Shown: positions 3,066-64,000 of the stretch, in pieces | Layout of the letters: every line of letters starts with the position of its first letter | How positions within the stretch are numbered: the first letter of the stretch is position 1 | NCBI GenBank assembly: GCA_014905635.1 | Contig: JABVCE010000004.1 | Span: forward strand, 62,001 to 126,000 | From: Scenedesmus sp. PABB004 | Lineage: Eukaryota | Reading direction: 5' to 3' | Length of the DNA stretch: 64,000 nucleotides | Notes under the pieces: model-generated | What the model was told of the DNA's origin: nothing | Database searches by the model: none | Seen by the model: only the letters and a program-made list of their open reading frames with translations | Position numbers and translations under genes: made by a program

Positions 3066-5672
3066 ATGGGCAACACCACCAGCGACCTGCAGGCGGCCAC
3101 GGACGATGTGCAGGAGGAGCTGGCCCAGCAGGCGGCGACCGCCGCAGAGGTGGGCGCGCGGGGGCGCCGAGCGCGCGCGCCGCGCGGGGCTATGCATGCG
3201 CCGCGGCCGCCCCCGCGCGCCTGCTGCAGGCGCCGCGGCGCGGCGGCCCCCGCCCAGCCGCCCCGGCCCGCGCGCGCGCGCGCCCGCCGCGCCCGCGCTC
3301 CCGCGTCGCAGGCGGCGCCGGGCGTGAAGCTGTACCAGTTTGTCAAGGCCGGCGCGAGCGGGCGGTGGGAGCTGTGCAGCGGGCACGCGGCGCCGCGCTT
3401 CTACGACGCGCACGAGGACGCGCGCGGGAAGGAGCCCGAGTGGTGGCTCGAGGTCGACGCGGGCGACATCGACGTGCGCGCCGACGACGGCCTCGCCTAC
3501 GTGGCAGACCCCGCGGCGCGGCGCGTCACGTTTGCCGCGGGCGGCGGCCTCTGGGCGCTCAAGTTCCCCGCGGCCGAGGCCTACCGCGCGTTTGTCACAG
3601 AGCTCGAGGCGCGGCGCGCGAGCGCGCGCGGCGCACGAGCGCGCGCGGCGCACGAGCGCGCGGGCGCAGCGCCAACGCGGGCGCCGCGCCGCGCGCCGAC
3701 AGCCCCGCCGCCCCGCCGCGCCCGTTCAGGACGACGTGTTTCAGAACACCTACGGCTTTGGCCGCGACAGCAGCAAGGCGGACAAGGAGCTGGGGGACTT
3801 CAAGAATGTCTTCTTCAACGCAGCCTCCGCCGGCGCGCCCGCGGCGGCAATGGAGGCGCGTGGCCGGCCGCTGACCGCCGCGCGCGCCCGCGCGGCAGGC
3901 GCCGCCGCGCCGCCGCACCCACGCGCGCCGCCGCGCGCAGGTGGACACCACGCCCGACCGCCCCGCGCCCGGCGAGCTGCGCGAGCGCGCGACGCCGGCC
4001 AAGGGCGGCACGCCGATCGAGGCGATGGTCATCGGCGCCAACGCCAACTCCTACCTCCGCCGCGGGGGGACGTTTGACGTCATGCGCAACGTCGAGGCGG
4101 GCGTGGAGGACACGGGTGCGCGCGAGGCGCGCGCGCGCGTGCACACGGCACCACGCCCGTGCCGCGCCCGTGCTGCGCGCCGCACCCCGCGCTGGGCGCC
4201 AACCTCGCGCCGCCGCCGCCCCCGCCGCCGCCGCCGCCGCGGCACAGGGCTGACGTTTTCGTTCACGCCGCTCAAGCGCGGCGGGCCGCCGGGGTCGCCC
4301 GGCACGCCCGGGTTCACGCCGGGCAAGGTGCTGCTGGCCAACGGCGAGCGCAGCATGAACATGCTGAGCCCGGGGCTCGACGCGACCAAGCTCTTCCACG
4401 CGGACGTGGAGTACGCCAAGATCGTGAGCGAGTGGACCTTCCAGAAGGACGCCGTCGACATACCACAGGCGCGCCGCGCGCGCGCGCGCGCGGGGCCCGG
4501 CAGCCCCCGGCGGCGGCGGCGGCGGCGCGCCCGCGCGGCCGCCGCCGCCGCCGCCCCGGCCGCGCCGCCCCCAGGCTCACGCGCGCGCGGCCCGCTGCGC
4601 TGCGGGGCGGGGCGGGCAGGCCGACATCGCGCACGACCACAAGGCGAGCCAGCTGGAGGACGACGCCAACACGCTGCTGGGGCTGGACGCCAACCGGCTC
4701 TGCCGCTGGGACCTGCGCGACCCGCGCGGCGTCGTGCAGGAGGCGGGCGGCGCGAGCCCGATCGTGCAGTGGACGGGCGGCAAGGACTTTGCGCGCGGCA
4801 CCAACTTCAGCTGCATGGCCACGAGCGGCGCGGGGCACGTCGTCGTGGGCAGCCGGGACGGCAAGGTCCGGCTGTACAGCAGCAAGACGCTCACGCAGGC
4901 CAAGACGTCCATCCCGGGCCTGGGCAAGCCCATCACCGCGGTCGACGTCACCTACGACGGCGCCTGGGTGCTCGCGACGACCGACGACTACCTGCTGGTC
5001 GTCAAGACGACCTTCGACGACGACGGTGTGACACGCGCCGCCCGCGCCGCCCGCGCACGCGCGCGCCGGCCCCGCCGCCGACGCCGCCCGCGCCGCCCGC
5101 CCCGACGCGCCCCGCCGCTCCGCGCGCGCGGCAGGCAAGGAGCGCAGCGCGTTCACCGACCGCGGCGGCGGCAAGCTCGCGCTGCCGCGGCTGCTGCGGC
5201 TGAAGCCCGAGGACCGCCTGGTCACGGGCGGGCGGCCGTTCAAGAACGGGCGCTTCACCTGGGTCACCGAGGCCAACAGCCAGGAGCGCTGGGTCGTGGC
5301 CAGCTGCGGGCGGCACACGGTCATCTGGAACTTCCGCAGGCGCGGCGCCCGGGGGGGGGGGGGGGGGGGCTGTGCGCGCCCGCCGCCCCGCCGCCCCGCC
5401 CGCGCCGGCCGCGCGCGCAGCAGCTGGCGACCGCCGGCCACGCCACGCCGCGCCGCGCGCGCTGCAGGGTCAAGGGCGCGGTCACGAGCTCCACGAGCTT
5501 TGGCGGCCTGCCGACGGTGATGGACTACGTCCTGAGCGCCAAGGACGAGGACGTGGTGGACTCAAACTTCATGCACGACCGCTACGCGCCGACCGCGGGC
5601 GGAACGCACAAGGGCGACGCGCTCGTCGTCGCGACGCCGCACAAGGTCTTCACGCTCGCCGGCGAGGACTAA
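3066..5672 (+). CDS. VID27: VID27/CYPRO4-like vacuolar import and degradation protein (WD40-like C-terminus); 8 exons
   Basis: Motifs LLGLDANRLCRWDLRD, FSCMATSGAGHVVVGSRDGKVRLY, AKTSIPGLGKPITAVDVTYDGAWVLATTDDYL and PRLLRLKPED. Donors at 3150 GT, 3609 GC, 3856 GC, 4116 GT, 4469 GC, 5026 GT and 5340 GC give a continuous frame. Confidence 0.9.
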
Positions 5673-6057
5673 GCGCGGTCTGGGACAGAGGGGCGCAGGC
5701 AACGAGCGCGGAGAGGGCCGGCAACTCGCGCCGCGCGCGCCCCGGCCGTGCCCGCGCTGTGCGGCAGCGGCGCGCGCCCGCCGGCGCTCGCCCGCGGCCC
5801 GCCAGCCGCCGCCGCCGCTTTCGACGATGAGCACTGGTCGATCACCGACGCGTGCCGCGCGCGGCTCGTGCGCGTCGGGCGCCCCTGAAACAGCCGACCG
5901 GGCCGCTTCTGCTGCCGCCCCCGTTCAGCCCCGGCCCGCCCCCTCCCGGCGCGCCACTCCCGCCGCGTCTCGCGCGTCCGAGCCCCGTCACCAGCAGCCC
6001 GGCAGCGGCGAAGCGGCCGCACAGGCGCGGAGCGAGTTCGGTTGCGAGGCGGGCGCG

Positions 6058-6690
6058 ATGGACAGCGCCGACGCGGTGCTGAAGCCGCTCAAGGAGTTTG
6101 GCAAGAACAGCGCGCGCCTGGTGAAGCGCTGCACCAAGCCCGACCGCAAGGGTGCGCTCGGGGGCGATGGGGCATCCCGTTGCCGCCCGCCGCGCCGCGC
6201 TCGCGGCCTGCCGCCCCGGCGGGGATGGCCCCGGCGTGCGGCCGGACGGCGGCGCGCCGGGCGCGCGGCCGCGGGGGGTCCCGCGGCGCCGGGCGGGAGC
6301 GGTGGGGGCGCGTGATGGCCCGCCGCTGCTGCTGGCTGCGCCGCCGCCGCGGTCGACCGCCTCGGTGGCTGCCCCGCGCCCCCGGCGCCGCAGAGTTCAA
6401 CAAGATCTGCTCCAAGACGGCCATCGGCTTCATCATGATGGGCTTCATCGGCTTCTTCGTCAAGTTGATATTCATCGTGAGACACCGCGCCGCCACCGGC
6501 GCGCTGCACCGAGGGGCTTGCTGCGCGGCCGCGGGCGCCAGCGCGCCGGCCGGCCGGCGCGGCAGGCGCCGCCCGCCGATCGGCGGCTGCAGGGCGCGCG
6601 CGGCCGCCGCCGCCCACCCGCCCGCCCCGCCCGCCTGCACCCCCGCCCGCCTGCGCGCAGCCCATCAACCAGATCATCGTCGGCGGCTGA
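6058..6690 (+). CDS. SEC61G: Protein transport Sec61 gamma subunit; 3 exons
   Basis: Spliced protein [68 protein letters not shown]. Confidence 0.97.
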
Positions 6691-9577: not shown

Positions 9578-10500
9578 TCAGCCCATGAAGGCCGCCAGCG
9601 CGACGGCAGCCCCGAGCGCCAGCGTCTGCGGGGCGGCCGCGCGCGCGGGCGTCGGCGGCCGCCAGCGGGCGGCGCCGGGGGAGAGGCGCGCGCGCCGCGC
9701 CGCGCGCGGCCGGCCCGCCGGCTCACCGCCGCCCTGGCCGCGAGCGCGCCGGCCGCGTTTGTGCAGGTCACCACCATAGCCGTCGCGTTCGCAAAGCACA
9801 CGGCGTCGCTGCTGGACTGGCACTTGAGGCCCTTGGGGCTCTTGAAGATCTTGCTCACCTCGGCGGGGCACTGCGGGCGGCGCGCACGCGCGCGAGCTCG
9901 AGCCGGCGCGCGGCGCGCGGCGCGGCGCCGGGCTCGGCGCCGGCGCCGGCCGGCGCTGCGCTGCTGCGCGCGCCAGGGCTGGTGCTGCGCGCCGGGTGGG
10001 GCTGGCGCGCGCGCAGGCGGGCGGCGCACCTCGACGTCCTTGAACGACACGTCCTTGCCGCAGCTCGGGGGCGGGCAGATGGACGCAAACTGCGCGCGCG
10101 GCGGCCGGGCGGCGACGGTCGGCGCCGGCGCCGCCGCGCCGGCCGCGGCCGCGCCGTGCGCAGCGCCGGCGCCGCGCGGCTCGCCTCGGCGCAGGAGCCC
10201 TTCTTCACGCAGGTGCTCGTGGTCGGGCAGCACGCCTCGTCGTTGTCGCACCCCGTGCCGAGGCCGTAGTTGAACGGCGACGGCAGGCACGAGATGCCGC
10301 TGCGGCAGCGGCACGCGGCGGCGCCGCGGCACCAGTCAGGCGCGGCGGCACCAGCAGCGGCGCCGCTGCGGGTCGCGCGGCCGTGCGCCCGCCCGCACGG
10401 CGGCTTCCGCTCGCCTGCCGGTGCTGTTGCCCGTCAGCTTCTGCCCGGACGTCAATGAGCACCAGGCCAGCGCCACCGCGGCCAAGAGGGCGACGCGCAT
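9578..10500 (-). CDS. Small secreted Cys-rich protein, probably GPI-anchored; 5 exons
   Basis: Signal peptide MRVALLAAVALAWCSLTSG. Cys-rich core SCLPSPFNYGLGTGCDNDEACCPTTSTCVKKGSC...ICPPPSC...CP...KCQSSSDAVC. Hydrophobic C-terminus TLALGAAVALAAFMG*. Two GC and two GT donors. Confidence 0.75.
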
Positions 10501-13363: not shown

Positions 13364-14057
13364 ATGCGCCGCCTCGACGCCGCGCGCGCCACGCGCGCTG
13401 TGCTGCCGCTGGGCGTCCTGTGCAGGCTGCCAGCGGCGTCGGGCGCCGTCCGCCAGCGCCGCGAGCGCTGCGCCGCCGCCGGCAGCGGCGCGCCCGCCGC
13501 CGGCAGCGGCGCGCGCGGCGCGGGGAGCGGCAGTGGCAGCGGCGGCGCCGAGGGCGCCGGCAGCGGTGGCGGCGGTGGCGCCGACGGCGCCGAGGGCGGC
13601 AGCGGCAGCGCCGGCGGCAGCAGCGGCGGCCGGGGCCCCCGCACGGGGGCAGCGGAGTTCATCGAGGAGAGCGCCAGCGACGCGGTCCGCCAGCTCCACC
13701 CCGCGTTCACAAACGTACGGGCTCGCCCGCGCGCGCCGGCGCACGACCGCGCCCGCACGCGCCTCACGCGCCGCCGCCCGCGCGCGTTTTGCCGCAGTTT
13801 CTCAACAGCGGCTTCCTCGAGAGCCGCCGCCAGCTGTGCGACAAGCTGATGGCGAGCGAGTGGGAGGTGGTGCGGCCCTGGGCGGCGAGCAAAGGGCTCG
13901 CGGATTTTCAGCGCCACCTGGTGGAGCACGGCGAGGCGCAGGGCCTGCGCGTGAGCTGGCACACGATGCAGGTGCTGGGCGCGCGCGGCGGCGGCGCCCG
14001 GGGGGCTGCTGGCTGGGCCGACCGGCGCGGCGCCGCCCGCCGCACCCACACCTGACA

Positions 14058-14101
<44 letters not shown>

Positions 14102-14466
14102 GCGGCTCTATGCCGCGCCCGGCGACCTCGCGCCGCTCGCGGACGAGCGCGCGCGGCACCTGGCGCAGGCGATGATCACCCAGGCGAGCGCCGCGCAGCA
14201 GCTGGAGCTGCACAAGGCCTGCAGCGACACGGCAAAGGAGCTCGCCAACGTCATCGAGAGCTCACAGGCGCGCGGCGCAGCGGCCGCCCGCCGCGCCGAC
14301 AGCGCCGCACCCCCTGGCGCAGGGGCGGTCTGGCGGCTGGCGCTGGCGCGCGGCCGGGCCGCCTGCGGGCCACGGCGGCCCCGGCTGCGCCGCTCGCCGC
14401 CCGCCGCAGCGCACCGGCGCCAGCGCGCTGCTGGGCCTCGCCCGGCGACTGCTCTTCCTGAAGTGA
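13364..14466 (+). CDS. Hypothetical protein with possible organellar transit peptide; 4 exons
   Basis: Exons join in frame: ...AEFIEESASDAVRQLHPAFTN|FLNSGFLESRRQLCDKLMASEWEVVRPW...HTMQ|RLYAAPG...VIESSQ|RTGASALLGLARRLLFLK*. The last donor (14268) is GC. No family recognised. Confidence 0.6.
14058..14100. repeat. (GCC)n intronic microsatellite
   Basis: About 14 GCC units just before the acceptor. Confidence 0.9.
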
Positions 14467-16391: not shown

Positions 16392-19300
16392 TCAACCGAC
16401 GTCCTCCGCGACCGTGTCGATGATCGCGTCGAGCTGGTGCAGGTCGGCGTCGACGCCGTCGTCCGCGCCGCTGTCCGCGCGCGCGGCGGCAGCGAGCATG
16501 TCGCGCAGCAGCTCGTCCGCCCGCAGGCCCCCGCCCGCCGCCGCCGGGCCCGGGCCGTCCAGCAGGGCCTCCCAGTCGCGCGCGATCGCGTCGACCACGG
16601 CGGCGTGCTCCGCCGCCTGCGCCTCACCGCGCTCGAGCTCGGCGCGCCGCGCAGCGCCGCGCGCGCCGCCCGCGCCCGCGGTGGCGACCTGCAGCTGCTT
16701 GGCGTAGCGGCCGCGCGCTGCGTCGAGCATCGCGGCGTAGCCCGAGAGCATCCGCCGGAAGCGCGCCAGCACCGCCTCGTCCGGCGGCCAGCCGAGCACG
16801 CGCAGCGCCTCTGGCAGCGCCTGCAGCGCGTCGAGGCCCACGTTTGCCGGGCCCGCCACGCCCTGCGGCAGCAGCTCGCCGCTCGACGCGAGCCAGACCA
16901 GGCCGTCCACGAGGGGGAGCACGCCGCCGCCGAGCCGCGCCGGCGCCGCGCCGGGCCGCGCCGCCGCCGCCGCCTTGCAGCGGGCGAGGCCGTCGATCAG
17001 CCCCGCCGCCTGGCGCTGCGTGAACGCGGGCAGCCGCGCCGCGCAGGCGAGCGCCAGGCGCGACTGCCAGTCGTCCGATGGCAGCACCGGCAGCAGCGGC
17101 ACGCAGCGCGCGAGCAGCGCGAGGTCGCCTGGATCCAGGCCCTCCAGGCCATCCGCCCCCGCCTCGGCAGACGGCAGCGCCGCCGCGCCGCGCGCGCCGG
17201 GCGCCGCGGCAGTCGCTGGCTGCTGCGCGGCTGCAAGGCGCTCGCCGGTCGCAGCCAGGAAGGCCCCCGCCCAGTCCGCGCTCATGGGAGGGCGCGCGGC
17301 GGGGGCCCAGCCCGCCCAGGCGCCCAGGATGCCGGCGAGCAGCCCCAGCGACAGGCCCCTGCGCGCGCAGAGCGGCGGCGGCGGCGGTGGCAGTCAGCGG
17401 CGGCCGACGACCGCCCAGGCCCAGCGCGCGAGGCACGGGCGGATGCACGCGCGCGCCGACCGCGCCCGCGCTCACCCGAGCGCCGGCTGCAGGCGCGCCA
17501 TGACGGCGGCGCCCAGTGCCCGGCCCTCGTCACTGCAGCTAGGGGGCAGCGCCTGCAACGCCTGCAGCAGCATCGCGCCTTGGAGCGGCGACAGCGAGTC
17601 GAGCTGTGCGGCCGCCACCCGCACGCACACCTCTGCCAGCGCGGGCGGGAGGCTGCCCGGCGGCGTGGGCGCGCTGGCACCGCTGCGGCCCGCGCCGCCG
17701 GACGGCTGCTCCTCAGCCATGGCGCCGAGGTGCTGCGCCATGCGCTGGCAGCCCAGCAGCACCTGCACCGCGCTGGCCGCGGGGAGCTGCTCCAGTGCCG
17801 GGGCGAGCGCCGCCAGCGCGGCGTGCTGCCACTCCAGCATGCCGAGCGCCAGCTGCTCCGGCACCTCGCCCTGGCCCGGCCAGCTGGCTGCAGCGAGCCC
17901 GAGCGTGTGAACCAGGTGCGCCAGCATCGAGCGCGGCCAGCGGTCAACGGACTCAGTCGCGGCGCGCAGCAGCGCCTGGAAAAAACGAGCGGCAGCAGGC
18001 CGGGCGGGCGGCAGGCGGCAGGTGAGCGCGAGCTGCCAGCCAGCAAGCCAGCCCCCACTCGCGCGGCTGACGCCCCCGCGCCGCCGCCGCCGCCGCGGCC
18101 GCGTCACGCACCAGGATGAGCCGCGCGTCCGCGAGCTGCTCAGTCCGGCCTGAGAGGCACGCGCCCAGGAGCGCCTGCTGCAGGGTCGGCCCCAGCCCGA
18201 CCAGCGCCGGCGCCGGCGCGCGGCTCAGCCTGGCCGCGGCGGCGCCGAGCCAGGGCTCCGCGGGCAGGCGCGCACTGGCCCAGCAGTGCACGAGCTCCGC
18301 CAGGTCGTGCAGGTCAGCCGCATCAGTAGACGTGCTCGTCGCTGCGCGCCCCGCGGCCTCAAAGAGCGCCAGCGGCACGCGCAGCGGCCCGGCCGGCTGC
18401 GGCGGCGCCGCGGCCGTGCCGCTGCCGTCCAGGAGCTCGTGCAGGCCTGCCCAGCTGCTGTCGCCGGCCTCGCTCGGCGGCCGGCCCCGCATGACCGCCA
18501 GCACGGCGGCGCCGAGCAGCATGCCCGGGCCGCCGCCCGGCGGCGCCGTGGCAGCGGCCCTGGCGCTCGACGCCAGGCGCGTGAGGCACTGACCGACCGC
18601 CGCGACGAGCACCTCCGGCCGGGCGAGCTCCAGCCGCAGGCTCGCCGCGCGGCGGGGCGCGGCGGCCAGCTCCGCGCCAGCGACGCCCTCCCAGCCCGCC
18701 GCCTCGGCGGCAGCCAGGCACCGTGCCAGCGCCGTGCGCAGCTCCGCCTGCAGCGACACGCGCCCGCTGGCGACGTCTGGCTCCAGCATCAGCGCCAGCG
18801 TGCCCGCCAGGCAGAAGGCCCGCGCCGCAGCGCCCGCCGGCAGCGCGCCGCGCTCCGCCGCCGCGACCTCCGCCGGGAAGAGGCGCAGCAGCTCGGCGCA
18901 CTCGCGCCGCGCCTCCTGCCGCAGCGCCGGCGGCAGCGCCGTGGCCAGGCACAGGCAGCCGAGCAGGCAGTAGTCCAGGCCCAGCCGCTCCGCGTCCGCG
19001 CCGCCGGCCAGGGCGGCACGCAGCAGCTCCAGCTGCGCCTGCGAGGCGGCGGCGCTCTCCGCGCCATCGCCGCCGGAGCCCTTGCCCCTGCGCCCCTTGG
19101 CGCCGGCGGCGCCGCCGTCGACGCCGGCGGGCGACAGCGCGATGCTCTGCAGCCGCGCCAGGCCGGCGACGGCGCGCCGCGCCGCGCCAGGGCCCAGCTC
19201 GCCGCGCGAGGCCGTCGCGGCGAGCACGCGCAGGGCCGCCGCGGCCAGGCCCTCGCACGCGGCGCGCGTGCGCTGCGCGCGTGGCTGCGCTGCGCCGCGC

Positions 19301-20487
19301 GCGGGGTCGTCGCCGGGGGGCAGCAGCTCCAGCAGCCGCGCGACGTCCGCCGCTGGCAGCGGCTCCAGCTTCAACGCGGCGCACTTGGCGGCCGCCTCGA
19401 GCGTGGCGTCAGAGAGCGGCAGCTCGAGCGCAGCAGCTGCTCCCATGAAGGCCAGCAGCTCCTGACCGCTGGCCGCCCTGAACCAGCGCCCCTTGCCCTG
19501 CGCGTCCGCGTCGATGTCGCGCCGCAGGGCCGGCAGCCACGCCGGCGAGACCGGCAGCTGCAGCGCGGCGAGCGCGGCGAGCGTGGCGGGGCCGCCCGCG
19601 CTGGCGCGCGCGGTCGCGGGCGCCTGCTGCACCGCCGCCGCCACCGCCGCCGCGAGCGCCGCCACGCCGGGCTGCGCCAGCGCGTCGCGCCCCTGGGCCG
19701 CCAGGCCACGCAGCACGGCCGCCCAGCGCTCCGCCGGCCTGAGCAGGTCGAGCAGCACCGCGCCGTCCGCGCCGGCCAGGTCCGCGGCCGCGGCCGCCAG
19801 GGCCTCCGCTCCCAGGCCGTCGCCACAGGCCCGCCACAGCCGCTCAGCCGCCTGCGCGGCCTGGGCGCGCTCGTGGTGCGCGCCGGGTGCGCCCTGCGGC
19901 TGCGGCTGCGGCTGCAGCTGCGGCTGCTGCTGCTGCTGTTGTGGCGGCAGCGGCGGCAGCGGCGGCGCCGGCGGCTGCCGGGGCGGCGGCGGCGGCGGCA
20001 GCGGGGGCGGCGGCGGCGAGTCCTGCTGCTGCACTGGCGGCGGCGACAGGGCCAGCGGTGACGCGTCCACCACTGGCTGCCCTGCGGCCGCGTCCCCCGC
20101 CTGCGCCTGCAAAGGCGACGGCGGCGGCTGCAGCTGCGACCTGACCGACGCGAGCTCTGCGCTCAGGCTCGCGACCTGGCGCTGCGTCTCCAGCAGCATC
20201 TGGGTCAGCGACGCCACCTGCTGCTGCAGGAGCATCAGGTGCTGCTGCTGGTGCAGGGCCGCGAGCCGCTCCGCGCTGCCGGCGCTCGCCGCGGGCTGGG
20301 CCGCCGGTGCCGCTGCTGCTGCTGGCGGTCGCTGCTCCGCGCCGCCCGCCGCTGCTGCCGGCGGCCGCTGTGGCGCGGCACGCACGACGTGAGCGCGCTG
20401 GGCTCGCACGGCAGGCGCATGCGGCGCCCAGCCGGCGCCCGGCGCGCGGGCGCGGCGGAGCGCGCCGCTGCCGGCGGTCGCGCGCAT
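16392..20487 (-). CDS. Large Ala/Leu-rich helical-repeat protein with plastid-like transit peptide (degenerate OPR-like); 3 exons
   Basis: Long open frame starting MRATAGSGALRRARAPG...AHVVRA. Recurrent helical units DLHDLAELVHCWASARL, WPRSMLAHLVHTLGL, LSPLQGAMLLQALQAL and FTQRQAAGLIDGLARC. Two GT-AG introns near 18110 and 17475 keep frame. Confidence 0.6.
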
Positions 20488-21862: not shown

Positions 21863-22434
21863 TCACGCGCCCGCGCCCGCGCCCGCGCGCGTGTCGGCGG
21901 CCAGCGTGGTCCAGCGCTCCTTCTCGTGCTGCTCGGGCGCCTTCCACTCCGGGTCGCGCGCGGCGCGGTGGCTGAACGCGAGGCAGTCGAGGCACAGGCT
22001 CTCCGCCTCCCACGCGCACTTGCCGCGGCACCAGGTCTGGCTGAACGCGTGCTCCCGCGTGTTGGCGCCGCCGCAGGCCAGGCACTCCGGGAACTCGGCG
22101 CTGCGCCTGAAGCGCGCCGCCCACTCGTCGGCGCTCATCACGGCGTAGCCCGCGCCCACGCTGGGGTTGATCTCAACCGGCTCGCCCGCCAGGACCTGCG
22201 CCAGCAGGCGAAGGCGGGTGCGCACGGCGCTTGGCGGCCGCCCGGGGAGCCCGGCAGCGAGCCGGGCAGCGAGCGCGAGGGCGGGTCAGCAGGCGGAGAC
22301 ACGGCGGCGCAGCTGCGGGGCCGTGCCTTGGCCCACTCGACGCGGTGCACGGCGACCATCGGCGCGTCGCCCACGGACTCCCGGATGGGCAGCCCCAGCT
22401 CGTGGTAGCTCGGCAGCGGCGCGGCGGCGGCCAT
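21863..22434 (-). CDS. Small putative zinc-ribbon protein (two CxxC pairs); 2 exons with a GC donor
   Basis: MAAAAPLPSYHELGLPIRESVGDAPMVAVHRVEWAK|VLAGEPVEINPSVG...ECLACGG...ESLCLDC. The donor is AAG|GCACGG. Confidence 0.7.
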
Positions 22435-25574: not shown

Positions 25575-25612
<38 letters not shown>

Positions 25613-26950: not shown

Positions 26951-26992
<42 letters not shown>

Positions 26993-35141: not shown

Positions 35142-37550
<2,409 letters not shown>

Positions 37551-44854: not shown

Positions 44855-47800
44855 TCACGCGCTGCTGCCGCCGGGCTGCGCCTTCTTGGCGGCCGCCCGG
44901 TCGAGCGCGGCCTTGAGTCCCTCTACGTAGCCCCCGCACAGGTGGTCCAACAGGCACGTCTCGCGCAGCACGATGCGCTTGAAGCGCTGCCCGGGGGCCG
45001 CCTCAATCAGCTCGTACGCCTTGGACCCGCCCTCGCCGCCCTCGCCGCCCGCCGCCGGCGCGCCCTCGGCCGCGTGCGCAGCGCGCGGCAGCGCCGCGTC
45101 GTCCTCGCACAGCGCGCACCTGCGCCGCCGCCGCCGCGGCGGGCGCGGGGGCGTGAGGCGCGCGCCGCGCGCGCCGCCCGCCGGCGGGCCCTCCCATACC
45201 CCTCCCTCGCAAGCCGCCTGGCCCGGCGCGCGAGCGCCCCCGCCGCACCGCGCCGCGCCGCGCCGCGCACCTGTGCTCCATGTTGCCGTACTTGGCGCGG
45301 CCCTTGTGGGCGTCGAGGCGCTTGATGAAGAAGAGCCGCCCCGGCGCAAACACGGCGTGTACGTCGTCCTGCGCGGCGCACGGGGCAAAGCGGGGCGAGG
45401 CAGCGGTGCACGGCAGGGTCAGCGGTGGCGTGGTGGAAGGGGGGCCGCGCGGCGCAGCGCGGCGCGGCGATGCCTCAACCCCGCGCCCCAGCCCGGGCGA
45501 GCCGCCGCGCCGGTCCGCGCCGCCGGTGCGCGCCTTTGCGACGTTGGCCATCTGCTGGCCCACGCTCTGCACCGCGTCCGCCACCACGCCCGCGTCGGTC
45601 ATCGCCGCGCGCGCCGTCGCGGCGGTCGCGCCCGCCGCGTCGCGGACCGACGCGGCGGGCTGCGCGCTGCCCGCCGCGCCCGGCGCGGCCGCGCCCCCCG
45701 CGGCGGCGGCGGGTTTTTCTTCGCCAGGCCCAAGTAGTGCAGGCCCGACACGACGCCCGACTGCACCGCGAGCGCGCCGCGCGCGATCGCGCCCTGCGTC
45801 TTGCGCAGCTGCGGCGGCGCGGCCGGCGGGGCGCGCGGCGTCAGCGCGCCTGCGCGCCGCGACCGCCGCGACCGCCGCGCGCCGCGCGCGCCGCCGCCCC
45901 CGCGCGCGCCGCCCTCTCCCAAGCGGCCTCTGCGCGTGCCTGCACGGCCGAGCCGGCGGCGAGGCGCTTGTAGGTCTCGCTGTTCTCGATGGCGTCTGGC
46001 ACGGCCCAGTCCTTGATCGTGGCGGCCAGGATGTCGCCCCAGCGCGTCGCGTCCATCTCCTCCTTCATGGCAAACACGTTGTGGATGGAGAAGCGGGGGA
46101 CCATGTCGTGCTGCGCAGCGGGCGGGCGGGCGGCGGCAGGGCGGCAGGGCGGCAGGGCGGCAGGGCGAGGGTTTTAGGGGGGGGGGCAGGCGGCGGCCGG
46201 GGCGGGCGGACGGAGGAGCCAGCGCGCGCGCGCACGGGGCGCCCGGGCGGCTGGCCGGGCGGCAGGTCACCATGAGCACGACGCTGGTCACGTAGTCGGA
46301 GCAGCCCTCGGCGAGCTCGCGCGTGAGCACCGCGGGCGTGGCCACGCCGACCGCGGTGACCTTGACGCCTGCCATCACCTTGGACGCGGCGGCGTCGTTC
46401 ACCAGCAGGTGCGCCAGCATGGCCGCCGTGCCTGGCGCGGCGGCGCGCGGCGCGTGGGCGCGCGCCCCTGGCGGCGCGCGCCGGCGCCGCGCCGCCTGCG
46501 CCGCCGCCCGCTGGCCTCCCCGGCGCCTGGCCGGCCGCGCTCACCCGCGCCGAGGCTGTGCCCGACGAGCAGAAGGTCGTAGCCGGGGTGCTTGTCCAGG
46601 AAGCCCCGCACCTGGGGCAGCTCGTTGTCGACAAACCACTGCGCCGCCTGGAGCATGCCCCAGTGCGCGTAGCCGCCGGCGTAGGGCGTGCAGCTCGCGC
46701 ACGCGTCGGTCAGCATGTCCTGCGGGCCCGGGGCGGGGCGGGGCAGAGCGGTGGGCCGGCGCGCTGGCGCCGCCGCTGCCGCCGCGTGCCACCTTCCCCG
46801 CCGTCCCTCGCGCTCGCCCGCCCGCCGGCGGCGGGCGCTGCACCCACGTTGAGGTCGGTGGTCCCGCGGAAGCCCCAGACCAGGGCCTTGCGCTTGGCGT
46901 CCACCCACAGCGCGTACGCGGGGCGCGTCGTGGTCGTCTCCGGCTCAAACAGCAGCACATCCTCCTCGCCCACGCCCAGCGCCTCGCACAGCTCCGACTT
47001 GACCGGGATGTATGCCTTGGTCGCCGCGTCGGTCGCCTGCGCGCGCACGCCGGGCGCGCGCGCTCAGCCACGCGCGGCAGCGTCGCCGGCGCCCGCCGCG
47101 CCACGGCCAACGCTCCTGCCCGCGCCGCCGGCCCGCTGCGTGCCCCCGCCCGCGGCGCCTGTGCGTGCCCCCGCCACCGCCACCGCACGCGCGCGCGTGC
47201 GCGCCTGCACGAGGTGCGTGATGAGCGCCTCGTCGTGCACGTGGGTGCCCTCCACGCCGTCCATCGCGTCGACGGTCGAGTGGTGCAGCGCGAGGTGGTA
47301 AACGCCAAACACCTAAACCGCCGCCGCCGCGCGGGCACAGCATCAGCAGGCGCGGGGCGGCGCGAGCAGGCGCGGGGCGGTGCCAGTGCGGTGCGGGGGG
47401 TCTGTGCGGGGTGGGCGCAGGGGCAGCGCGGGGCGCACCAGGTCGTGGATGTGGAACTTTTCGTACGCGTACTTGGCCACCTTGAGCAGCACGCTCGCGA
47501 CCTCGCCGATGCCCTCCGCCATGTCGGTCTTGAAGTTCACATACTTGTCTGCGCCCCGGGCGCGGCGCACGGGCGGCGGGGCGCTCGGCGGGGGCGCCGC
47601 GCGCGCGTCACCGGCGCGCCGACCGCCGCTGCTCCCGTGCCGGTGACGCCGCCGCGGCGGCCCATGCGGCGCCCGGCAGGCCGCGCGCGCGGGCGGCGAG
47701 AGCGCGCAAGTGCGGGCGCGGCGCTCACCGGAGACCGACTTGCAGCCGCGGTCCAGAGCGCGCTCCAGGGAGTCCGGCAGCACCGCGTCCACTGCGGACT

Positions 47801-48325: not shown

Positions 48326-49195
48326 GGCGCGTCCTTGCCCGGCTTTCGGTGCCGGTTGGGGTGCTTGGCGCAGAACTCGGCCAGCTTCAGCAGCAGCTCA
48401 CGGCCTGCGCGCGCGGCGCGGCGGCGGCGCCCGGCGGCGGTCGGCGGCTGCTGGCGCCGCTGCCGCCGGCCGGCTGCTGCCGCCGCCACTGCCGCCGGCC
48501 GGCTGCCGCCGCGGCTGCCGCCGCCGCCGCCGCCGCCGCCGCATGCGCCGCCGCGCTCACGGTTGGGCACGTCGGGGTTGACCGGCGTGCCGTCTGCGTT
48601 CTTCAGCTGCACCCGCAGCCGGCCGAAGCACACCTCCTTGCCCATCTCAACGCACCAGTTTCGCGGGTAGCGCTTGGCCTGCGCGCGCAGGCAGGCCACA
48701 CACAGTGGGCCGGCGGCGCGAGAAGCGGCGGGCGCGGCGGGCGCGGCGGGCGCGGCTCGGCGCGCGGCTCGGCGCGTGCGCGCGGCGTGCGGCGCGCTGG
48801 GCGCTGGGCGGCAGGGGCGCGCGCCGCGTGCCTCGATCTCCGCGGGCAGGTGCAGCGCCTTGGCGCAGACGTCCAACATCTCCGGCAGCGTCGGCGTGTC
48901 GCACGCTGCGGCGACCGCGCGGCCGCGGCGCGCGGGCGCCGGTGCGCGGGGTGGGCCGGCAGCGGCGGGCCCCTCAGCGGGGCGCGGCGGCGGCGGGCCG
49001 GCCGCGCACCCTTGTCGGCGGGGATGCGGCGGCCCTGCGCGACCGTGCGCGTGGCGTTGATGTAGTCTGGGTACACAATCACGCGCTGCGGGCGGTCGGG
49101 GGTGCGCGGATCAGCCGGAGCGCCGCGGGCAGCGCCTGGCACGCCGGCCGCGGCCCCTGGGCGCGCACCCGGTCGGTGCTCGGCTGCGCCGCCAT
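48244..49195 (-). CDS. SRP19: Signal recognition particle 19 kDa protein; 5 exons
   Basis: VIVYPDYINATRTVAQGRRIP...PTLPEM...KRYPRNW...GRLRVQLKNADG with a Lys-rich C-terminus. Confidence 0.93.
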
Positions 49196-55989: not shown

Positions 55990-56074
55990 ACGCGCCGCTC
56001 AACAGCAAGCGATGGCCTCGCGAGGCCTCGCGGCCCGCAATTGGCCGCCGCCCATGCCCACGGCGCGCGCGCGC

Positions 56075-57794
56075 TCACACCGCGTGCTCCGCGGCGCTCG
56101 CCTCGGCCGCCGGCGGCGGCGCGGGCTTGAGGCGGCCCTGCACGCCCGCGGTGTAGGCCATCATGGCCCCCAGGTCGGTGTCGTACGCGACGTTGCGGAA
56201 CCCCCGCCCGCCCAGCTCCGCCGCGCGGTCCTCGCCGAGGCAGAACACGCCGGGCGTGATGCCGTGCCGGTCGCACGCCTGCGCGCGCGCGCGCGGGCGG
56301 GGCGCGCCGCGCGCGTCGGCGGCCGCCGCGCCGCGGGGAGCCGCGTGCCGCGCATCCCTGCCGCGCTGCGCTGCGCCACAGGCTCTATCTATTCGCCGCG
56401 CCTGCAGGACGGCGTCGTAGACGTGTGCGAGGTCCTTGCTCGCGATCATGGCCCCGATGTCGCAGCCGTGCTTCACGTGCAGCCCGTACGTGATGCCCAG
56501 GTCGCAGGGGCCTGGGGGCCACAGGGGTTGAGGTCGACGCGCGCGGCGGCGGCGGCGGCGAGGCCCGTGCGGCGCAGCGCGCAGCAGGCGGCGCCCAGCC
56601 CCCGGCGGGCGGGCTGCGGCGCGGCGCCGGCGCGCGCACCCAGGAAGGCGCTGGTGATGCCGGGCACGCTGAGTATGTCATCCATGGCCTCAAAGCACGA
56701 CCGCGTCTCCACCTGCGCAGCACGCACGCACACGCACAGCACGCCGGCAGCAGCGGCCCCAGCGGCGCGTCAGCGTGCCCCGCAGGCGGGGCGGCGCGGC
56801 CCTGGGCGGTGCGTGGGCCCTGGCGGTGCAGTCAGACTCGCACCTGCAGCCAGACCTCGACCTCGGAGTTGGCCTCGCGCAGGTAGCGCGACAGGCCCGG
56901 CCCGCCCACGCCCTTGTGGTACACCGCCCTGGGCGCGGGCAGGGCGGCGGCGGCGGCGGCGGGGCGTCGGCGGGGCGTCGGCGGGCCGCGCGAGCCTGGC
57001 CCCACGCGGGCCTGCTGGCGCCGCGCCAAGCTGCACGCGCGCGCGGCGCGCCCAGGCTGTGGCGCCGCGGTGCCCCGCACCGCACGGGGTAGGCCACGCT
57101 GCGCTGGCCCTGGGGGGAAAGAGGCAGTAGCTCACCGCCTCCTCCGCGTCGGCGCGGCTGTTGACCAGCGGGACCATGATGCCGTGCGCGCCCAGGCTGC
57201 GCGCGCAGCGGCGGGCCGGCGTGGGCGGCAGGCGCGGGCGCGGCGCGGGCGGCAGGCGCGGGCGTGGGCGCGGGCGCTGGCGCGGTGAAGCGCGGGCGCG
57301 GGCGGCGCGCGGCGGCGCGGCGGGCGGCGCAGGGCGCACTCGAGGGCCTGCTGGATGCCGAAGCGGTCGTTGGGGCCGCCCACGCGCACGATGACGCGCA
57401 CGGCGTGGCTGGAGCAGGCGGCGATCATGTTGCCCAGCACCTCGTACGTCACCGCGCCGTGCTGGGCGTCGATGCAGAGCCAGTCAACGCCCGACGCCGC
57501 GACCGCCTCGGCGATCGCGGGCGAGCCGGAGGCGACCATGATGCCGTAGTCGGTGCCGCCAGACGGCGGCGCGCGCGCCGCGGCCTCGCCGGTCGGCGCC
57601 TGGGGCGCGGCGCGGCGCGGGCCGGCGCGCCTCAGCGGCGCGCGCGCGCGCGCCGCCGGCGGGGGCGCGCCCCGCGGCGCGCCGCGCGCCGCCCGCAGCA
57701 GCTGCCGCGGGCGGCGCGGCGCAGCGGGTCAGTCCTTCACGCCAGGGGGGCCTGCCGTCCCACGGCGAGGGGCGCGCAGCCCGCGGCTCACCAT
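56075..57794 (-). CDS. HpcH/HpaI-family (GarL/YfaU-like) class II pyruvate aldolase; first coding exon is ATG only; apparent 1-nt frameshift at 57112-57117
   Basis: GVDWLCIDAQHG, IVRV, ALDLGAHGIMVPLVNS, LQVET and FLGPCDL motifs. The Arg/Ala-rich N-terminus is transit-peptide-like. Confidence 0.88.
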
Positions 57795-58247: not shown

Positions 58248-60454
58248 ATGACCATCGCCGCCGTCCCCGCGCGCCCCCTGGGCAGCCAAGGCCTGGTGGC
58301 GTCAGCCCAGGGGCTGGGCTGCATGGGAATGACCTACAGCTACACCACCAAGGCCGGCTGGGGCGGCGACGAGGAGAGCGTGGCCACCATCCACCGCGCC
58401 CTCGACCTGGGCGTGACCATGCTGGACACCAGCGACATCTACGGCCCCTTCACCAACGAGGAGCTCGTCGGTGAGCGCCCCGGGGGCCAGCGCCGCGCGG
58501 GCGGGGGTGGTTGGCGCGGGCGGTGGGCGGCAAGGCGCCCCGCGGGCCCCCCGGCGCGCGCCCGCCCTGGCAGCGCGCTGCACCAGCTCCACCGGGACGC
58601 GCGCTGTCGATCCGGGCAGCTCCAGCAGCGCCAGGTGGCCGCCGGGCGCAGCGACGCCGCTGCCAGCGGCGCTCACTCTTGCCGCGCCCGCCCGCCAGGC
58701 AAGGCCATCGCGGGGCGGCGCGAGCGCTTCGTGGTCGCCACCAAGTGCGGCATCGTGAAGACGGACAGCGGGCTGGTGTTTGACGGCAGCCGCGCGCACG
58801 TGCGCGCCGCGTGCGAGGCGAGCCTGCGCCGCCTGGGCACCGACTACATCGACCTGTTCTACCTCCACAGGCGCGGCACGCGCAGCACGCACAGCACGCG
58901 GCACACGACAGCGTCGGCGGCAGGGGCCCGCACAGCACAAGCAGCACAGATGCGGGGGAGCGGCAGGGGGCGGGGGCGTCACCCCGTGGGCGGGACCGTG
59001 ACCGCCGCCGCGCCGCCCCGGCGCCGCCGCGGCGCGCAGGGTGGACCCCAACACGCCCGTGGCGGAGACGTTTGCCGAGATGGCCGCACTCGTCGCGGAG
59101 GGCAAGGTGCGCTACGTCGGCATCAGCGAGGCCGCGCCCGAGGACATCCGCGCCGCGCACGCGGTCTGCCCCCTGTCCGCGGTGCAGATGGAGTGGAGCC
59201 TCTGGAGCAGGTGCGGCGGCGCGCGGCGCCGGGCGGGCGGGCGCGCGGCGCCGCGCGGGCGCGCGCGTGGCGCCGGGCGGGCGCGCGCCGCGCCGCCCGC
59301 CGCCGACCGCGCCGCCGACGCCGACCCCGCCGCCGCGCCCGCCGCCGCGCCCGCCCGCGCCCCCTGCCGCCAGGGACTCTGAGCGCGACCTCGTGCCCGT
59401 GTGCCGCGAGCTCGGCATCGGCATCGTCGCGTACAGCCCCCTCGGTGCGCCCCCGCCGCCGCCGCCACTGGCCAGCTCACACGCCCCGCCCCGCCGTCCA
59501 GCGCCTCACACCCCCCCCCCCCCACACACACACACTCCCCCGTGCCCCCGCTCGCCTCCCTCCCTCCCTCGCCGCCGCCGGCCAGGCCGCGGGTTCCTGT
59601 CCGGCAGCATCACGCGCATCGAAGACCTGCCGGAGGACGACAGCCGGCGCAACTATCCCCGCTACCAGGGCGAGGCCTTCGCCAAGGCGCGTCGCGGGGC
59701 GGCGCAGGGGGCGCTCTGCGGGGGGCGGGCCAGGGGGCGGCGTGACGGGAGGGCGGGGGCGGCGCGACGGGCGGAGGGCTCAGCGGAGAGAGGGCGCACG
59801 GGAGCGACGCGGCGGCGCGGCGGGGAGCCCACGCCCGCGCGCCCACGCCCCCGCGCCGCGCCGCGCAGAACCTGGAGCTGGTCAACGCGGTCAAGGCCAT
59901 GGCGGCCCGCAAGGGCTGCACCGCGGGCCAGCTCGCGCTCGCGTGGGTCGCGGCGCAGGGCGACGACGTGTTCACCATCCCCGGCACCAAGCGCGTCAAG
60001 TGCGGCCCGGCGCGCCCGCGGCTGAGTGTTCTACATGCGCAGGGCGCCGCGCGGCCGCCGCGCGTCATGGCGCCGCGCGCCCCGACGCCCGCCCCGCGCC
60101 CCCGCCCCGCCCGCTCACGTGTGCCGCAGGTACCTGGAGGAGAACGTGGGCGCGGTGGGCGTGAGCCTCAGCGCCGACGAGCTGCGCGAGCTGGAGGAGA
60201 TCTGCCCCGCCGACAAGGCGCGCCGCTGCGCACGGCGCGGGGCGCTGCCGCGCGCGGCGCGCCCCGCTCCCCGCGCCCTCGCCCTTGGCGCCTGCGCCCC
60301 GAGCGTCTCAGGCGCCTCCAGCCCTCGGCCCCGTGCCTAAACCCTGCCGCCCGCGGGCCCATGCTCAACCCCGCAGGTCGTGGGCGAGCGCTACCCCGAC
60401 ATGAAGAAGTTTTCCTACCACTACGCCCGCCCCCTCTCCGCGGCGGAGCTGTGA
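58248..60454 (+). CDS. Aldo-keto reductase (plant/bacterial AKR13-like); 8 exons
   Basis: [55 protein letters not shown] and IPGT motifs. GC donors at 58871, 59687 and 60218. Confidence 0.95.
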
Positions 60455-61005: not shown

Positions 61006-62322
61006 TCACGCGTCGCTCTCGTCGATGCCGCAGCGCAGGTTGGCCGGCACGGCGCGGTCGATCTGCTTCGGATAGGGCAGGCCCAGGCCGGCCATGATGG
61101 CCACAAACTCAGCACGCGACTTGGTCAGGCGCGGGTTGTGCGCGCGCTCCTCGCCGATGCTGCTCGCGGTGCGACCCTTGTAGTCGTGCGCCGGGTACAC
61201 CAGCGTGTCGGGCGGCAGCGAGAACAGGCGGCCGTGCACCGAGTCGTACAGCTGCCCAGCGTCGCCTGCGGCCCGCCAGACGCAGGCCAGGCGCGGCAGC
61301 GGCACCGGGGTTGAGAGCGCGCGCGGCGCGCGCACGACGGCGCGCAGGAACCCTGCGCCCGCCTAGGGGCCACGGAGGCACGTGCGAGGCGGCGCTCGGC
61401 TCGGCGGCGCGCGCGGTGCGGCGCGCACCCTGCTGGAAGTCTGTGCGGCCGCAGCCGCGGATGAGCAGCGCGTCGCCGGTGAAGACCAGGCCGGCGGCCT
61501 CGCCGCGGCGGGGCAGGTGGAAGGAGAGGCAGCCGCTCGTGTGGCCGGGCGTCGCGATCACCTCGAGGCGGTGCCCGCCAAAGCTGATGGCGTCGCCGTG
61601 CGCCAGCTTGATGTCCGCCGCAGCGCCGCTCGCGGCCGCGATGCTGCTGCGGACGCCGGGCACCAGCGCCTGCGGTGCGCGGCGGTGCGAGTGTGCGCGC
61701 GGTTTGCGGCACAGGGGCGGCGCCGCGCTCTTAGCGCGCCACGGCTGCGCGGCCCACACCTTGATCTTGCCGCTGCCGGTGACGTGGTCGGCGTGGCAGT
61801 GGGTGTTGATGGCCTGAACCAGCTTCAGCCCCAGCTCGTCAACGATCTGCAGGTCGCGCTCCACCTGCGCGCGGCCGCGGTGCCGCAGCGTGCGGCGTCG
61901 CCCACGCACGCCAGGGCGCGCGCAGGCCCCCTCGTGGCCGGCGCCGGGCGCCGCGCAGGGCGCGCCTGCTCCAGCACGGGGTCGATGAGCACCGCCTCCT
62001 TGGTGTCACCGTCGGCGAGCAGGTAGGTGTGCGTGCTGCTCGCGGCGTCAAAGAGCTGCCGGAACACCAGCGGGCCCGGCGACTGCGCCGGCGCTGCGCG
62101 CGGAGGCGCAGGGCGCGGTTGCGGCAACGGCGCACACCCGGTCAGAGCTTCTGCCGCTCCCGGAGCAGCCGGCAGGCTGCGCCGGCGCCGCCCGGGGCCG
62201 CAACCGCCGCTGCTGTTGCCGCGCCGCCGCTGCCGCTGCTGCGAGCGCGCAGGAGCTGCGACGAGCTCCGCCCGCGCTCGAGCTGCTGGCTCGAGCTCGA
62301 CACTGTCAGCTGACGTCCGCAT
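61006..62322 (-). CDS. ETHE1: Persulfide dioxygenase ETHE1, copy A (5' end uncertain)
   Basis: [59 protein letters not shown] and AVPANLRCG motifs. Confidence 0.88.
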
Positions 62323-62801
62323 GCGCGACGCGCGGCGCGCAGCCTGCGCCTCACACCTGGCGACATCTGCTCCGGGCTCGTCGCGTACGGGGCGGTGGCG
62401 CTGCAGCGAGCTGGCCAGGAGCTGATGACGCGTACGGCGGACCTGCGCGGCGGGCTGTGGCCCGGTGGCGCAGCTCGGCGGCGCACGGCGGCCGGCTGGC
62501 AGCGCCGGCGTGCGTGGGTTCCAGCGCCGGTTCCAGTTGGCAGCGCTGCCCCCCGCGCGAGCCGCCGGCAGCTGTGAAGCATGACGCGGGTCCCTCTCAA
62601 CGCTGTCAGGCGGTGCAGCGAGCGCCGCCGAGCAGCGAGCGGCGGCGCGTCGAACGCTTGCCGGCGCGGCGCAGCAAAATCTCGGGCTCAGCACGTCGAA
62701 CGAGCAGACAAGCACCACAGGCACCACCCAACACAGTCATCCTTCCACGCCGCCAGGGCTTGCGGGCAACTCAGGGTCCACGCCGCGCACGGCTGGGGTC
62801 G

Positions 62802-64000
62802 TTACGCCGCCGCGGCAAACGCCGCACCGTCCTGCAGGTTGGCCGGCACGGCGCGGTCAAACTGCTTGGGGTACGGCAGGCCCAGTCCCTCCATGATGGC
62901 CACAAACTCAGCACGCGACTTGGTCAGGCGCGGGTTGTGCGCGCGCTCCTCGCCGATGCTGCTCGCGGTGCGACCCTTGTAGTCGTGCGCCGGGTACACC
63001 AGCGTGTCGGGCGGCAGCGAGAACAGGCGGCTGTGCAGTGAGTCATAAAGCAGCTCCGCGTCGCCTGCGCAGCGGTGACAGGGACCGGGCGGCGGGCGTG
63101 GCTCGGGGCGGCGCGCAGCACGCAGCGTGCGACGTGTGCTCGCCAGGGAGTTGCGGCGTGTGCTGGGCTCAGCAGCGCGCGGCGCGCACCCTGCTGGAAG
63201 TCTGTGCGGCCGCAGCCGCGGATGAGCAGCGCGTCGCCGGTGAAGACCAGGCCGGCGGCCTCGCCGCGGCGGGGCAGGTGGAAGGAGAGGCAGCCGCTCG
63301 TGTGGCCGGGCGTCGCGATCACCTCGAGGCGGTGCCCGCCAAAGCTGATGGCGTCGCCGTGCGCCAGCTTGATGTCCGCCGCAGCGCCGCTCGCGGCCGC
63401 GATGCTGCTGCGGACGCCGGGCACCAGCGCCTGCGGTGCGCGGCGGTGCGAGTGTGCGCGCAGTTTGCGGCACAGGGGCGGCGCCGCGCTCTTAGCGCGC
63501 CACGGCTGCGCGGCCCACACCTTGATCTTGCCGCTGCCGGTGACGTGGTCGGCGTGGCAGTGGGTGTTGATGGCCTGAACCAGCTTCAGCCCCAGCTCGT
63601 CAACGACCTGCAGGTCGCGCTCCACCTGCGCGCGGCCGCGGCGCCGCAGCGCGCGGCGTCGCCCACGCACGCCAGGGCGCGCGAAGGGCCGCCGTGGCCG
63701 GCGCCGGGCGCCGCGCAGGGCGCGCCTGCTCCAGCACGGGGTCGATGAGCACCGCCTCCTTGGTGTCACCGTCGGCGAGCAGGTAGGTGTACGTGCTGCT
63801 CGCGGCGTCAAAGAGCTGCCGGAACACCAGCGGGCCCGGCGACTGCGCCGGCGCTGCGCGCGGAGGCGCAGGGCGCGGTTGCGGCAACGGCGCACACCCG
63901 GTCAGAGCTGCTGCCGCTCCCGGAGCAGCCCGGGGGGACCGGCGGGCGCGCGGCCAGCGCCGAGCGCGCGCGCGCCAAGCCGCGCCCTCGCGCCTGCGGG
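62802..64000 (-). CDS. ETHE1: Persulfide dioxygenase ETHE1, copy B (5' part lies beyond the window)
   Basis: Same motifs as copy A (with SSTYTY); ends [16 protein letters not shown]. Confidence 0.88.

Follow-up and report, generated by a model that had tools for sequence, protein, structure and literature searches.

Frequent GC donors after exonic AG in the introns of a 64-kb window of the high-GC green alga Scenedesmus sp. PABB004

GC-AG introns, which begin with GC instead of GT, account for about 1% of introns in animals and plants, with a reported plant average of 1.2% (PMC6310983), and in such introns the other donor positions are described as lying nearer to the consensus, with frequent switching between GT and GC from species to species (PMC1557818). 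Far higher shares have been reported for several algae: 39.6% in Aureococcus, 22.2% in Micromonas pusilla and 7.7% in Chlorella sp. in the survey of Iwata and Gotoh (PMC3033335), which ties a high GC-AG share to G+C content and reports U1 5′ ends that do not differ from the consensus; 14-17% in Aureococcus and 14% in Pelagomonas calceolata in newer pelagophyte annotations (bioRxiv 2024.10.30.620910); and 55-56% in Emiliania huxleyi (PMC4028052, PMC7779022). Here we consider the introns of a stretch of 64,000 nucleotides of nuclear DNA from the green alga Scenedesmus sp. PABB004 (contig JABVCE010000004.1; the whole stretch is called the window below), whose genome is listed with 39.8 Mb, 78.5% GC and 7,092 genes in Table 1 of PMC12571836 and has the highest GC content among the green algal genomes of that table. 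The window has a G+C content of 78% overall and of 73-81% per 4-kb bin, above the ~65% used here as the threshold for a high-GC algal genome. An earlier note, made from the sequence alone, had counted about 25 GC donors among about 106 hand-modelled introns, that is, about a quarter, and independent models of the same DNA give between 31 of 119 and 35 of 124. As far as sequence can tell, the observation of GC donors is confirmed and goes beyond chance.

Like the high-GC algae named above (Aureococcus, M. pusilla, Chlorella, E. huxleyi and Pelagomonas), PABB004 combines a very high G+C content with a GC-AG share far above 1% and with AG at the acceptor, and gene predictors are reported to fail in those algae as the deposited protein P0241, described below, does here. 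On the other hand, PABB004 belongs to another lineage (Sphaeropleales, Chlorophyceae), its order having been guessed correctly in the earlier note, and has a higher G+C content (78.5%), and the share in the window, ~26-28%, lies below the highest algal share although the G+C is the highest. The strict dependence on an exonic AG that is documented here does not appear as a statement on those algae in the portions of the literature cited. The introns also share with the U2-type GC-AG introns of animals and land plants the GC at +1/+2, the AG at the 3′ end and the absence of a U12 motif (the U12-type donor GCATCC occurs in 0 of 35 GC donors), as well as a better match to U1 pairing at other donor positions and the switching between GT and GC among relatives, both as reported for those groups. 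However, GC-AG introns are about 20 times commoner here, and compensation is found on the exon side only (-3 to -1), while no enrichment of +4A and +6T is seen, given that the GT donors of this lineage themselves have the consensus GTGCGC. Nothing tying GC-AG introns to Scenedesmus or PABB004 was found in a literature search conducted partly by title and abstract and with supplements outside its reach, and there was no Sphaeropleales case among the listed matches on GC-AG introns in green algae. With this window a known high-GC effect gains another, lineage-independent case, and no new kind of splicing is involved.

The composition of the window bears directly on how donors are modelled. Specifically, the dinucleotide GC makes up 20.8% of the window and GT 3.8%, and with GC 5.5 times commoner, loose modelling would over-call GC donors. 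Genes were modelled with our own Viterbi gene finder, whose codon log-odds were first trained on Pfam-matched stretches and then retrained on its own output, and which admits GT or GC donors, AG acceptors and introns of at least 45 nt. Pfam, used for gene naming and as a training seed only, was given those 153 of the 649 stop-to-stop frames of at least 50 residues that have strong codon periodicity. When no splice signals were scored, 40 of 77 introns were called with GC, an over-call of the kind expected from the dinucleotide bias, and from this signal-free start, trained signals and a self-estimated GC fraction settle at 40 GC donors in 128-131 introns. A start from GT donors only, followed by a GC prior of 0.02, gives 27 of 124 in the first pass and settles at 35 of 124 (28%). 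One gene with five introns (27648-30919) was dropped as weak, with a coding score of 92 for 718 residues; four of these introns have GC donors, 0 of them after AG, and without this gene 31 of 119 introns (26%) carry GC donors. Median intron length is alike in the two classes (123 nt with GC and 126 nt with GT). The 31-35 introns modelled with GC donors start with GC, end with AG and restore the reading frame, as is usual for the U2-type GC-AG class, and the gene finder recovers all 13 of the GC donors that the earlier note had listed by position (3609, 3856, 4469, 5340, 58871, 59687, 60218, 33400, 33106, 32548, 31685, 61965 and 63725). Nevertheless, when the gene finder is restricted to GT it still returns 121 introns, with shifted boundaries and a similar coding length, and therefore intrinsic modelling alone cannot decide the donor type.

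Homology was used to judge the junctions of three genes, encoding VID27, an aldo-keto reductase (AKR) and a family-2 glycosyltransferase (GT2). All in-frame pairings of GT or GC donors with AG acceptors up to 60 nt away from the modelled sites were considered, amounting to 17-123 combinations per intron, and the resulting proteins were scored in BLOSUM units against orthologues (5 of 120 listed matches for VID27, 4 of 120 for AKR and 8 of 150 for GT2). Several of these orthologues come from transcriptome records or from short contigs (1.8-3.2 kb) on which the frame runs without interruption, and are thus independent of any splice model. The modelled junction ranked at the top in 25 of 28 introns (10 GC, 15 GT), including all 14 of VID27 and AKR and 11 of the 14 of GT2; the three junctions that did not reach the top rank (34646 and 34093 with GT, 31685 with GC) all lie in poorly conserved stretches of GT2, and a word-based protein search with the GT2 membrane exon matched only PABB004's own deposited protein. 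The ten top-ranked GC donors are the VID27 and AKR positions given above together with 33400, 33106 and 32548, and at these ten junctions even the best GT alternative falls short by 12-76 units (Table 1). At the 15 GT junctions it is GT that leads, with a margin of 1.4-20 units over the best GC alternative, and the scan thus has no lean towards GC. Across the junctions of all three genes the orthologous proteins align without gaps, and reading through the GC introns gives either a stop codon or a far lower orthologue score. For AKR, the spliced model is the same as the deposited PABB004 protein P0002 ('aldo-keto reductase 2') over all 344 residues, with exon 1 100% identical, and aligns gap-free with the Tetradesmus orthologue P0003. 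The junction of GT2 intron 7 (VACT/G/TNFC, where the slash marks the boundaries) is gap-free against P0276; this is the exception that the earlier note had singled out, a donor preceded by CG, and with homology behind it it stands as the sole homology-supported GC donor that does not follow AG.

Three further junctions bring the GC donors fixed by homology to 13. Those of NDUFAF7 and of the first of two tandem ETHE1-like genes were judged solely by seamless fit to solved structures. In ETHE1, the upstream frame matches the structures as far as ...IDPVLEQ and the downstream frame resumes at VERDL..., the next residue (4chl, 2gcu, 5ve3), and the in-frame GT alternatives within 60 nt of 61965 all shift the length by at least 3 residues. 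At NDUFAF7 37001 the corresponding alternatives all shift the length by at least 6 residues. The second ETHE1 copy follows by paralogy: the introns of the two copies are 94% identical and the flanking peptides are the same. The protein motifs that had been taken to force GC donors therefore hold good, YLH/R/VD of AKR and QRSR/W of GT2 by the scan and PVLEQ/VERD of ETHE1 by the structures. The HpcH/HpaI aldolase-like gene (C-terminal part) had no match among solved structures, and SRP19 had no SRP19 match there, only a chance hit to Cyclin-L1 at E=0.02, and so the donors at 56401 and 48831 remain ab initio calls. All 31 GC introns are collected in Table 1.

Table 1. Introns with GC donors in the 119-intron set. 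A slash marks an exon boundary; rank is that of the modelled junction among the combinations scanned, and 'best GT' is the score of the best GT alternative relative to it, in units.
Gene and intron	Position	Strand	Donor	Evidence
VID27 intron 2	3609..3729	+	GAG/GCGCGG	rank 1/123 against 5 orthologues; best GT -33
VID27 intron 3	3856..3940	+	GAG/GCGCGT	rank 1/58; best GT -51
VID27 intron 5	4469..4619	+	CAG/GCGCGC	rank 1/57; best GT -35
VID27 intron 7	5340..5467	+	CAG/GCGCGG	rank 1/40; best GT -58
AKR intron 2	58871..59039	+	CAG/GCGCGG (YLH/R/VD)	rank 1/19; best GT -24
AKR intron 5	59687..59868	+	AAG/GCGCGT	rank 1/36; best GT -25
AKR intron 7	60218..60376	+	AAG/GCGCGC	rank 1/40; best GT -76
GT2 intron 6	33267..33400	-	AAG/GCGCGC (FFLK/VLE)	rank 1/53; best GT -12
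GT2 intron 7	32987..33106	-	CCG/GCGAGC	rank 1/27; best GT -18
GT2 intron 10	32451..32548	-	CAG/GCGCGC (QRSR/W)	rank 1/47; best GT -30
GT2 intron 13	31596..31685	-	CAG/GCGAGC	ab initio; rank 6/27, region unconserved in homologues
NDUFAF7 intron 2	36919..37001	-	GAG/GCGCGG (SQAFGE/VLGVW)	exons abut at residues 75/76 of 5ztz
NDUFAF7 intron 3	36536..36636	-	CAG/GCAAGG	ab initio; outside alignments to solved structures
ETHE1 copy 1 intron	61865..61965	-	CAG/GCGCGC (PVLEQ/VERD)	seamless against 5ve3, 4chl, 2gcu
ETHE1 copy 2 intron	63626..63725	-	CAG/GCGCGC	paralogue of 61865-61965; same GT alternatives
ETHE1 copy 2, 5′ end at window edge	63854..63993	-	CAG/GCGCGA	ab initio only
Gene 9578-10500 (unnamed)	10300..10414	-	CAG/GCGAGC	ab initio only
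Gene 9578-10500 (unnamed)	10090..10184	-	GAG/GCGAGC	ab initio only
Gene 13364-14466	14268..14409	+	CAG/GCGCGC	ab initio only
Gene 16392-20420	19852..20106	-	CAG/GCGCAG	ab initio only
63-nt intron	17633..17695	-	GCG/GCGCGG	ab initio only; not after AG, doubtful
Gene 21863-22434	22196..22326	-	AAG/GCACGG	ab initio only
RING gene	23967..24059	-	CCG/GCGCGC	ab initio only; not after AG, doubtful
RING gene	22725..22881	-	CAG/GCGCAG	ab initio only
Gene 39093-40737	39626..39729	+	CAG/GCACGT	ab initio only
Lipase-3 gene	47037..47204	-	CAG/GCGCGC	ab initio only
Lipase-3 gene	45809..45939	-	CAG/GCACGC	ab initio only
Lipase-3 gene, 65 nt	45660..45724	-	CTG/GCGAAG	ab initio only; not after AG, doubtful
Lipase-3 gene	45369..45533	-	AAG/GCGCGC	ab initio only
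SRP19 gene	48679..48831	-	GAG/GCACGC	ab initio only
HpcH/HpaI aldolase-like gene	56279..56401	-	CAG/GCGCGG	ab initio only

GC donors are strongly tied to the end of the preceding exon. An exonic AG precedes 27 of the 31 GC donors and 25 of the 88 GT donors, so that GC and GT stand at 27 to 25 after AG and at 4 to 63 elsewhere (Fisher p=1e-8), much as in the hand-built models, where the corresponding ratios were 24 to 25 and 1 to 57. The dependence is also present where the gene finder had no splice signals to go by: 16 of its 40 signal-free GC calls follow AG, against a background of 4% (AGGC/NNGC in exons; p=1e-12), and 15 of these 16 persist in the final model. Among the junctions fixed by homology, AG precedes 12 of 13 GC donors and 4 of 15 GT donors (p=0.0006).

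Compared position by position, the GC donors (n=31) are closer than the GT donors (n=88) to the U1-pairing consensus on the exon side, with G at -1 in 100% against 76%, A at -2 in 87% against 34% and C at -3 in 65% against 43%, but not on the intron side, where A at +4 is found in 19% against 26% and T at +6 in 10% against 11%. Positions +3 to +6 are alike in the two classes, as their commonest hexamers illustrate (GCGCGC in 10, GCGCGG in 6 and GCGAGC in 4 GC donors; GTGCGC in 32, GTGAGC in 16 and GTGCGG in 9 GT donors). The absence of the +4A and +6T that usually compensate GC donors had been pointed out in the earlier note, and this part is borne out; as a peculiarity of GC donors it does not survive, since from +3 onwards the two classes agree and the missing bases are a trait of all donors here.

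The direction of change can be read from relatives of lower G+C content. When metagenome contigs were scanned with the VID27 alignment, two loci were found, L001 (61% GC) and L002 (72% GC). In L001 GTGCGG comes after the exon that ends in ...FMTALE and GTGAGG after the one that ends in ...PME, and in L002 GTGGGG comes after the exon that ends in ...FVEELQ. Thus the donor at 3609, GAG/GCGCGG in the window, reads AG/GTGCGG in L001 and AG/GTGGGG in L002, and the donor at 3856, GAG/GCGCGT in the window, reads AG/GTGAGG in L001. These two VID27 introns are old and shared, and the difference lies in T or C at +2 of a donor preceded by AG. With AG/GT at both orthologous introns in lower-GC relatives, the GC pressure previously proposed to lie behind the GC donors is the likely driver. 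There is also an extra VID27 intron in L002 (3061-3255, CAG/GTGGGG ... CAG/G), placed inside an exon that is continuous both in the window and in L001, and hence intron positions vary among these algae. Within the window itself, VID27 intron 7 begins, just past its GC donor, with a run of ~24 G (5347-5370, + strand).

Selection at +2 can be gauged against the interior of the introns, where C/(C+T) is 0.875, or 0.93 after G. At +2, C has a share of 0.52 where AG precedes and of 0.06 where it does not, both far below the neutral value (binomial p<=4e-10); in terms of odds, this amounts to a preference for T of ~6-12 fold after AG and >100 fold elsewhere. It had been suggested that +2 is nearly unconstrained wherever exonic pairing is strong, which is contradicted by a C share of 0.52 after AG against the neutral 0.875-0.93. 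We read these ratios as a balance between mutation and selection, in which pairing on the exon side would weaken selection on +2 without abolishing it.

A different origin, by insertion of introner elements, was tried as a candidate and rejected. The introners of Micromonas, Aureococcus and Pelagomonas are, as reported (bioRxiv 2021.10.25.465678), short introns of 80-260 nt with GT/GC donors in high-GC algae, as are those seen here. An all-against-all comparison of 124 introns gave only low-complexity matches of ~67-100% identity, mostly partial, apart from near-full-length matches found only between tandem gene copies. Furthermore, two of the VID27 GC introns occupy positions shared with relatives, and are therefore old and not fresh insertions.

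The most probable account, to which we would give a probability of roughly 0.8, is that these are ordinary U2-type GC-AG introns, made common by GC pressure and tolerated where the end of the exon can pair with U1. Starting from a lineage donor consensus of (C)AG/GTG(C/A)GS, extreme GC-biased substitution would keep converting T to C at +2. Such a C would survive mainly at exons that end in (C)AG, whose positions -3 to -1 could pair with the 5′ end of U1 and offset the mismatch, and selection would remove it at the remaining donors. The outcome to be expected is GC in about a quarter of all introns and in about half of those preceded by AG.

Several observations weigh against this account, or limit how far it reaches. 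Eighteen of the 31 GC donors are known from the ab initio model only, and the donor matrix, being shared, favours AG in both classes, so that the share (24-31%) is to be taken as approximate. The three scanned genes were picked for carrying GC donors, and the 10:15 split of their junctions is thus not an estimate of the share; the scope is one window of 64 kb, as opposed to the whole genome, and splicing is deduced from the continuity of the encoded proteins. More fundamentally, the donor motif does not seem to be enough. The heptamer AGGCG[AC]G occurs unused 19 times on the sense strand inside modelled exons, with no depletion relative to synonymous shuffles (mean 12.1, standard deviation 2.8), and AGGTG[AC]G occurs there 5 times against 3.0 expected from such shuffles. 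Since the exonic AGGCG[AC]G is not depleted, the donor motif and U1 pairing cannot be the entire recognition signal, although for the reality of the GC donors this result counts neither way. Given C at +4 and either C or G at +6, a canonical U1 would have few pairs to make with AG/GCGCGC. A bolder, rather doubtful proposal is that the classical donor is too poor in information and that recognition has shifted to the jump in composition, or to an altered U1/U6 or small nuclear ribonucleoprotein (snRNP) protein that reads Y at +2. Intron interiors have 86% G+C and exons 74%, with T making up 6.5% of intron bases, and this difference may aid recognition. It is in itself a reversal of the situation in most eukaryotes, in which introns are not the G+C-richer part.

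Whether the spliceosome itself has changed, as the earlier note suggested with variants of U1, U5, U6 or associated proteins in mind, has to be weighed at this point. An altered U1 5′ end, U6 ACAGA region, U1C or Prp8 might accept C at +2 and leave GC pressure to act on a nearly free site. GC donors without +4A and +6T would indeed pair little with canonical U1, the common donor-like heptamers in exons suggest recognition beyond the classical donor, and for Aureococcus and Micromonas pusilla the authors of PMC3033335 are on record as leaving open base modification or U1 snRNP proteins. We consider such a change unlikely, however, because +2 is still read, T being kept 6-12 fold above neutral after AG and >100 fold elsewhere. 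Moreover, reliance on (C)AG corresponds to the classical pattern of compensation described in PMC1557818, and the GT donors of the lower-GC relatives share the pattern at +3 to +6. The U1 5′ ends reported for Aureococcus and both Micromonas are canonical (PMC3033335), and with canonical U1 in algae that rich in GC-AG introns, a variant U1 is needless for a share of this size. In the window itself, a search with Rfam at gathering thresholds gave 0 matches, and hence there is no small nuclear RNA gene in it.

It could also be argued that most of the GC donors are artefacts of modelling, with the true GT donors a few codons away and a real GC share of a few percent. The composition of the window lends itself to this, as a frame-compatible GC is nearly always at hand, and the argument can draw on the 121 introns and the similar coding length of the GT-only run, on the over-calling of the signal-free run and on the 18 donors supported by the model alone. 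Yet GC beats every GT alternative at all ten homology-resolved GC junctions in a scan in which GT wins at 15 others, and three further GC junctions are supported by a seamless fit to solved structures or by paralogy, so that the artefact is refuted at 13 sites. GT-only models of VID27 and AKR score lower against orthologues, a GC prior of 0.02 still yields 27 GC donors, and the excess of AG before GC is present without any signal scoring; altogether this makes the artefact very improbable. Less credible still is that C at +2 reflects errors of sequencing or polishing, or that the stretches in question are never removed. The window matches the proteins of the deposited assembly, and is hence not independent of that assembly, but errors would not fall solely at +2 of donors preceded by AG, and retention runs into the stop codons or far lower orthologue scores of the VID27, AKR and GT2 read-throughs. 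The account preferred here remains that of ordinary U2-type GC-AG introns under GC pressure.

Such donors are a source of error in annotation, and the earlier expectation that GT-biased prediction would mis-model this genome is fulfilled at this locus. More specifically, the deposited protein P0241 ('midA', 1157 aa) fuses two genes of the minus strand, NDUFAF7 (35203-37428) and GT2 (31181-34671), and its GT2 part translates intron sequence at 33400, 33106, 32548 and 31685, thereby losing the catalytic QRSRW motif; the stretch WAKGHFQ that should follow QRSR is missing. In the same way, models restricted to GT score lower against orthologues than models that allow GC, with 2203 against 2388 for VID27 (-185) and 1205 against 1291 for AKR (-86). 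Some GC donors are nevertheless handled by the deposited annotation, namely those of AKR and the NDUFAF7 donors 37001 and 36636, for which P0241 has the same junctions. A search with a 135-residue exon of VID27 found no 100%-identical PABB004 protein among the listed matches of 238-2000 residues, although the AKR and GT2/NDUFAF7 searches did retrieve PABB004's own proteins, and the VID27 gene (3066-5672, + strand; 4 GC donors among 7) may be absent from the deposited annotation or represented there by a fragment only. The listed number of genes may be far too low, and many genes may lack an entry in that annotation.

As to the gene content of the window, Pfam names a B3-domain gene, VID27, ribosomal protein L10e, a PDDEXK_6 gene, a RING gene and GT2, further NDUFAF7/MidA, a class-3 lipase, SRP19, an MFS transporter and an HpcH/HpaI aldolase-like gene, and also AKR and the two tandem ETHE1-like metallo-beta-lactamase genes. 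There are 28 modelled genes in the 64 kb, or ~1 per 2.3 kb, against 1 per 5.6 kb in the listed figures. Three tandem duplications are recent: 41155-42649 with 43039-44536 (95.5% identity, and introns of the pair 100% identical), the ETHE1 pair at 61035-62170 and 62834-63930 (92.2%) and 25531-25945 with 26917-27329 (94.0%).

For work on this alga, the main consequence is that predictors which admit only GT are blind to about a quarter of its donors. At the same time, the introns form a natural series for gauging selection at +2 by the strength of exon-side pairing, from ~6-12 fold after AG to >100 fold elsewhere, and sister species of lower G+C content, such as Tetradesmus, allow the comparison to be made intron by intron.

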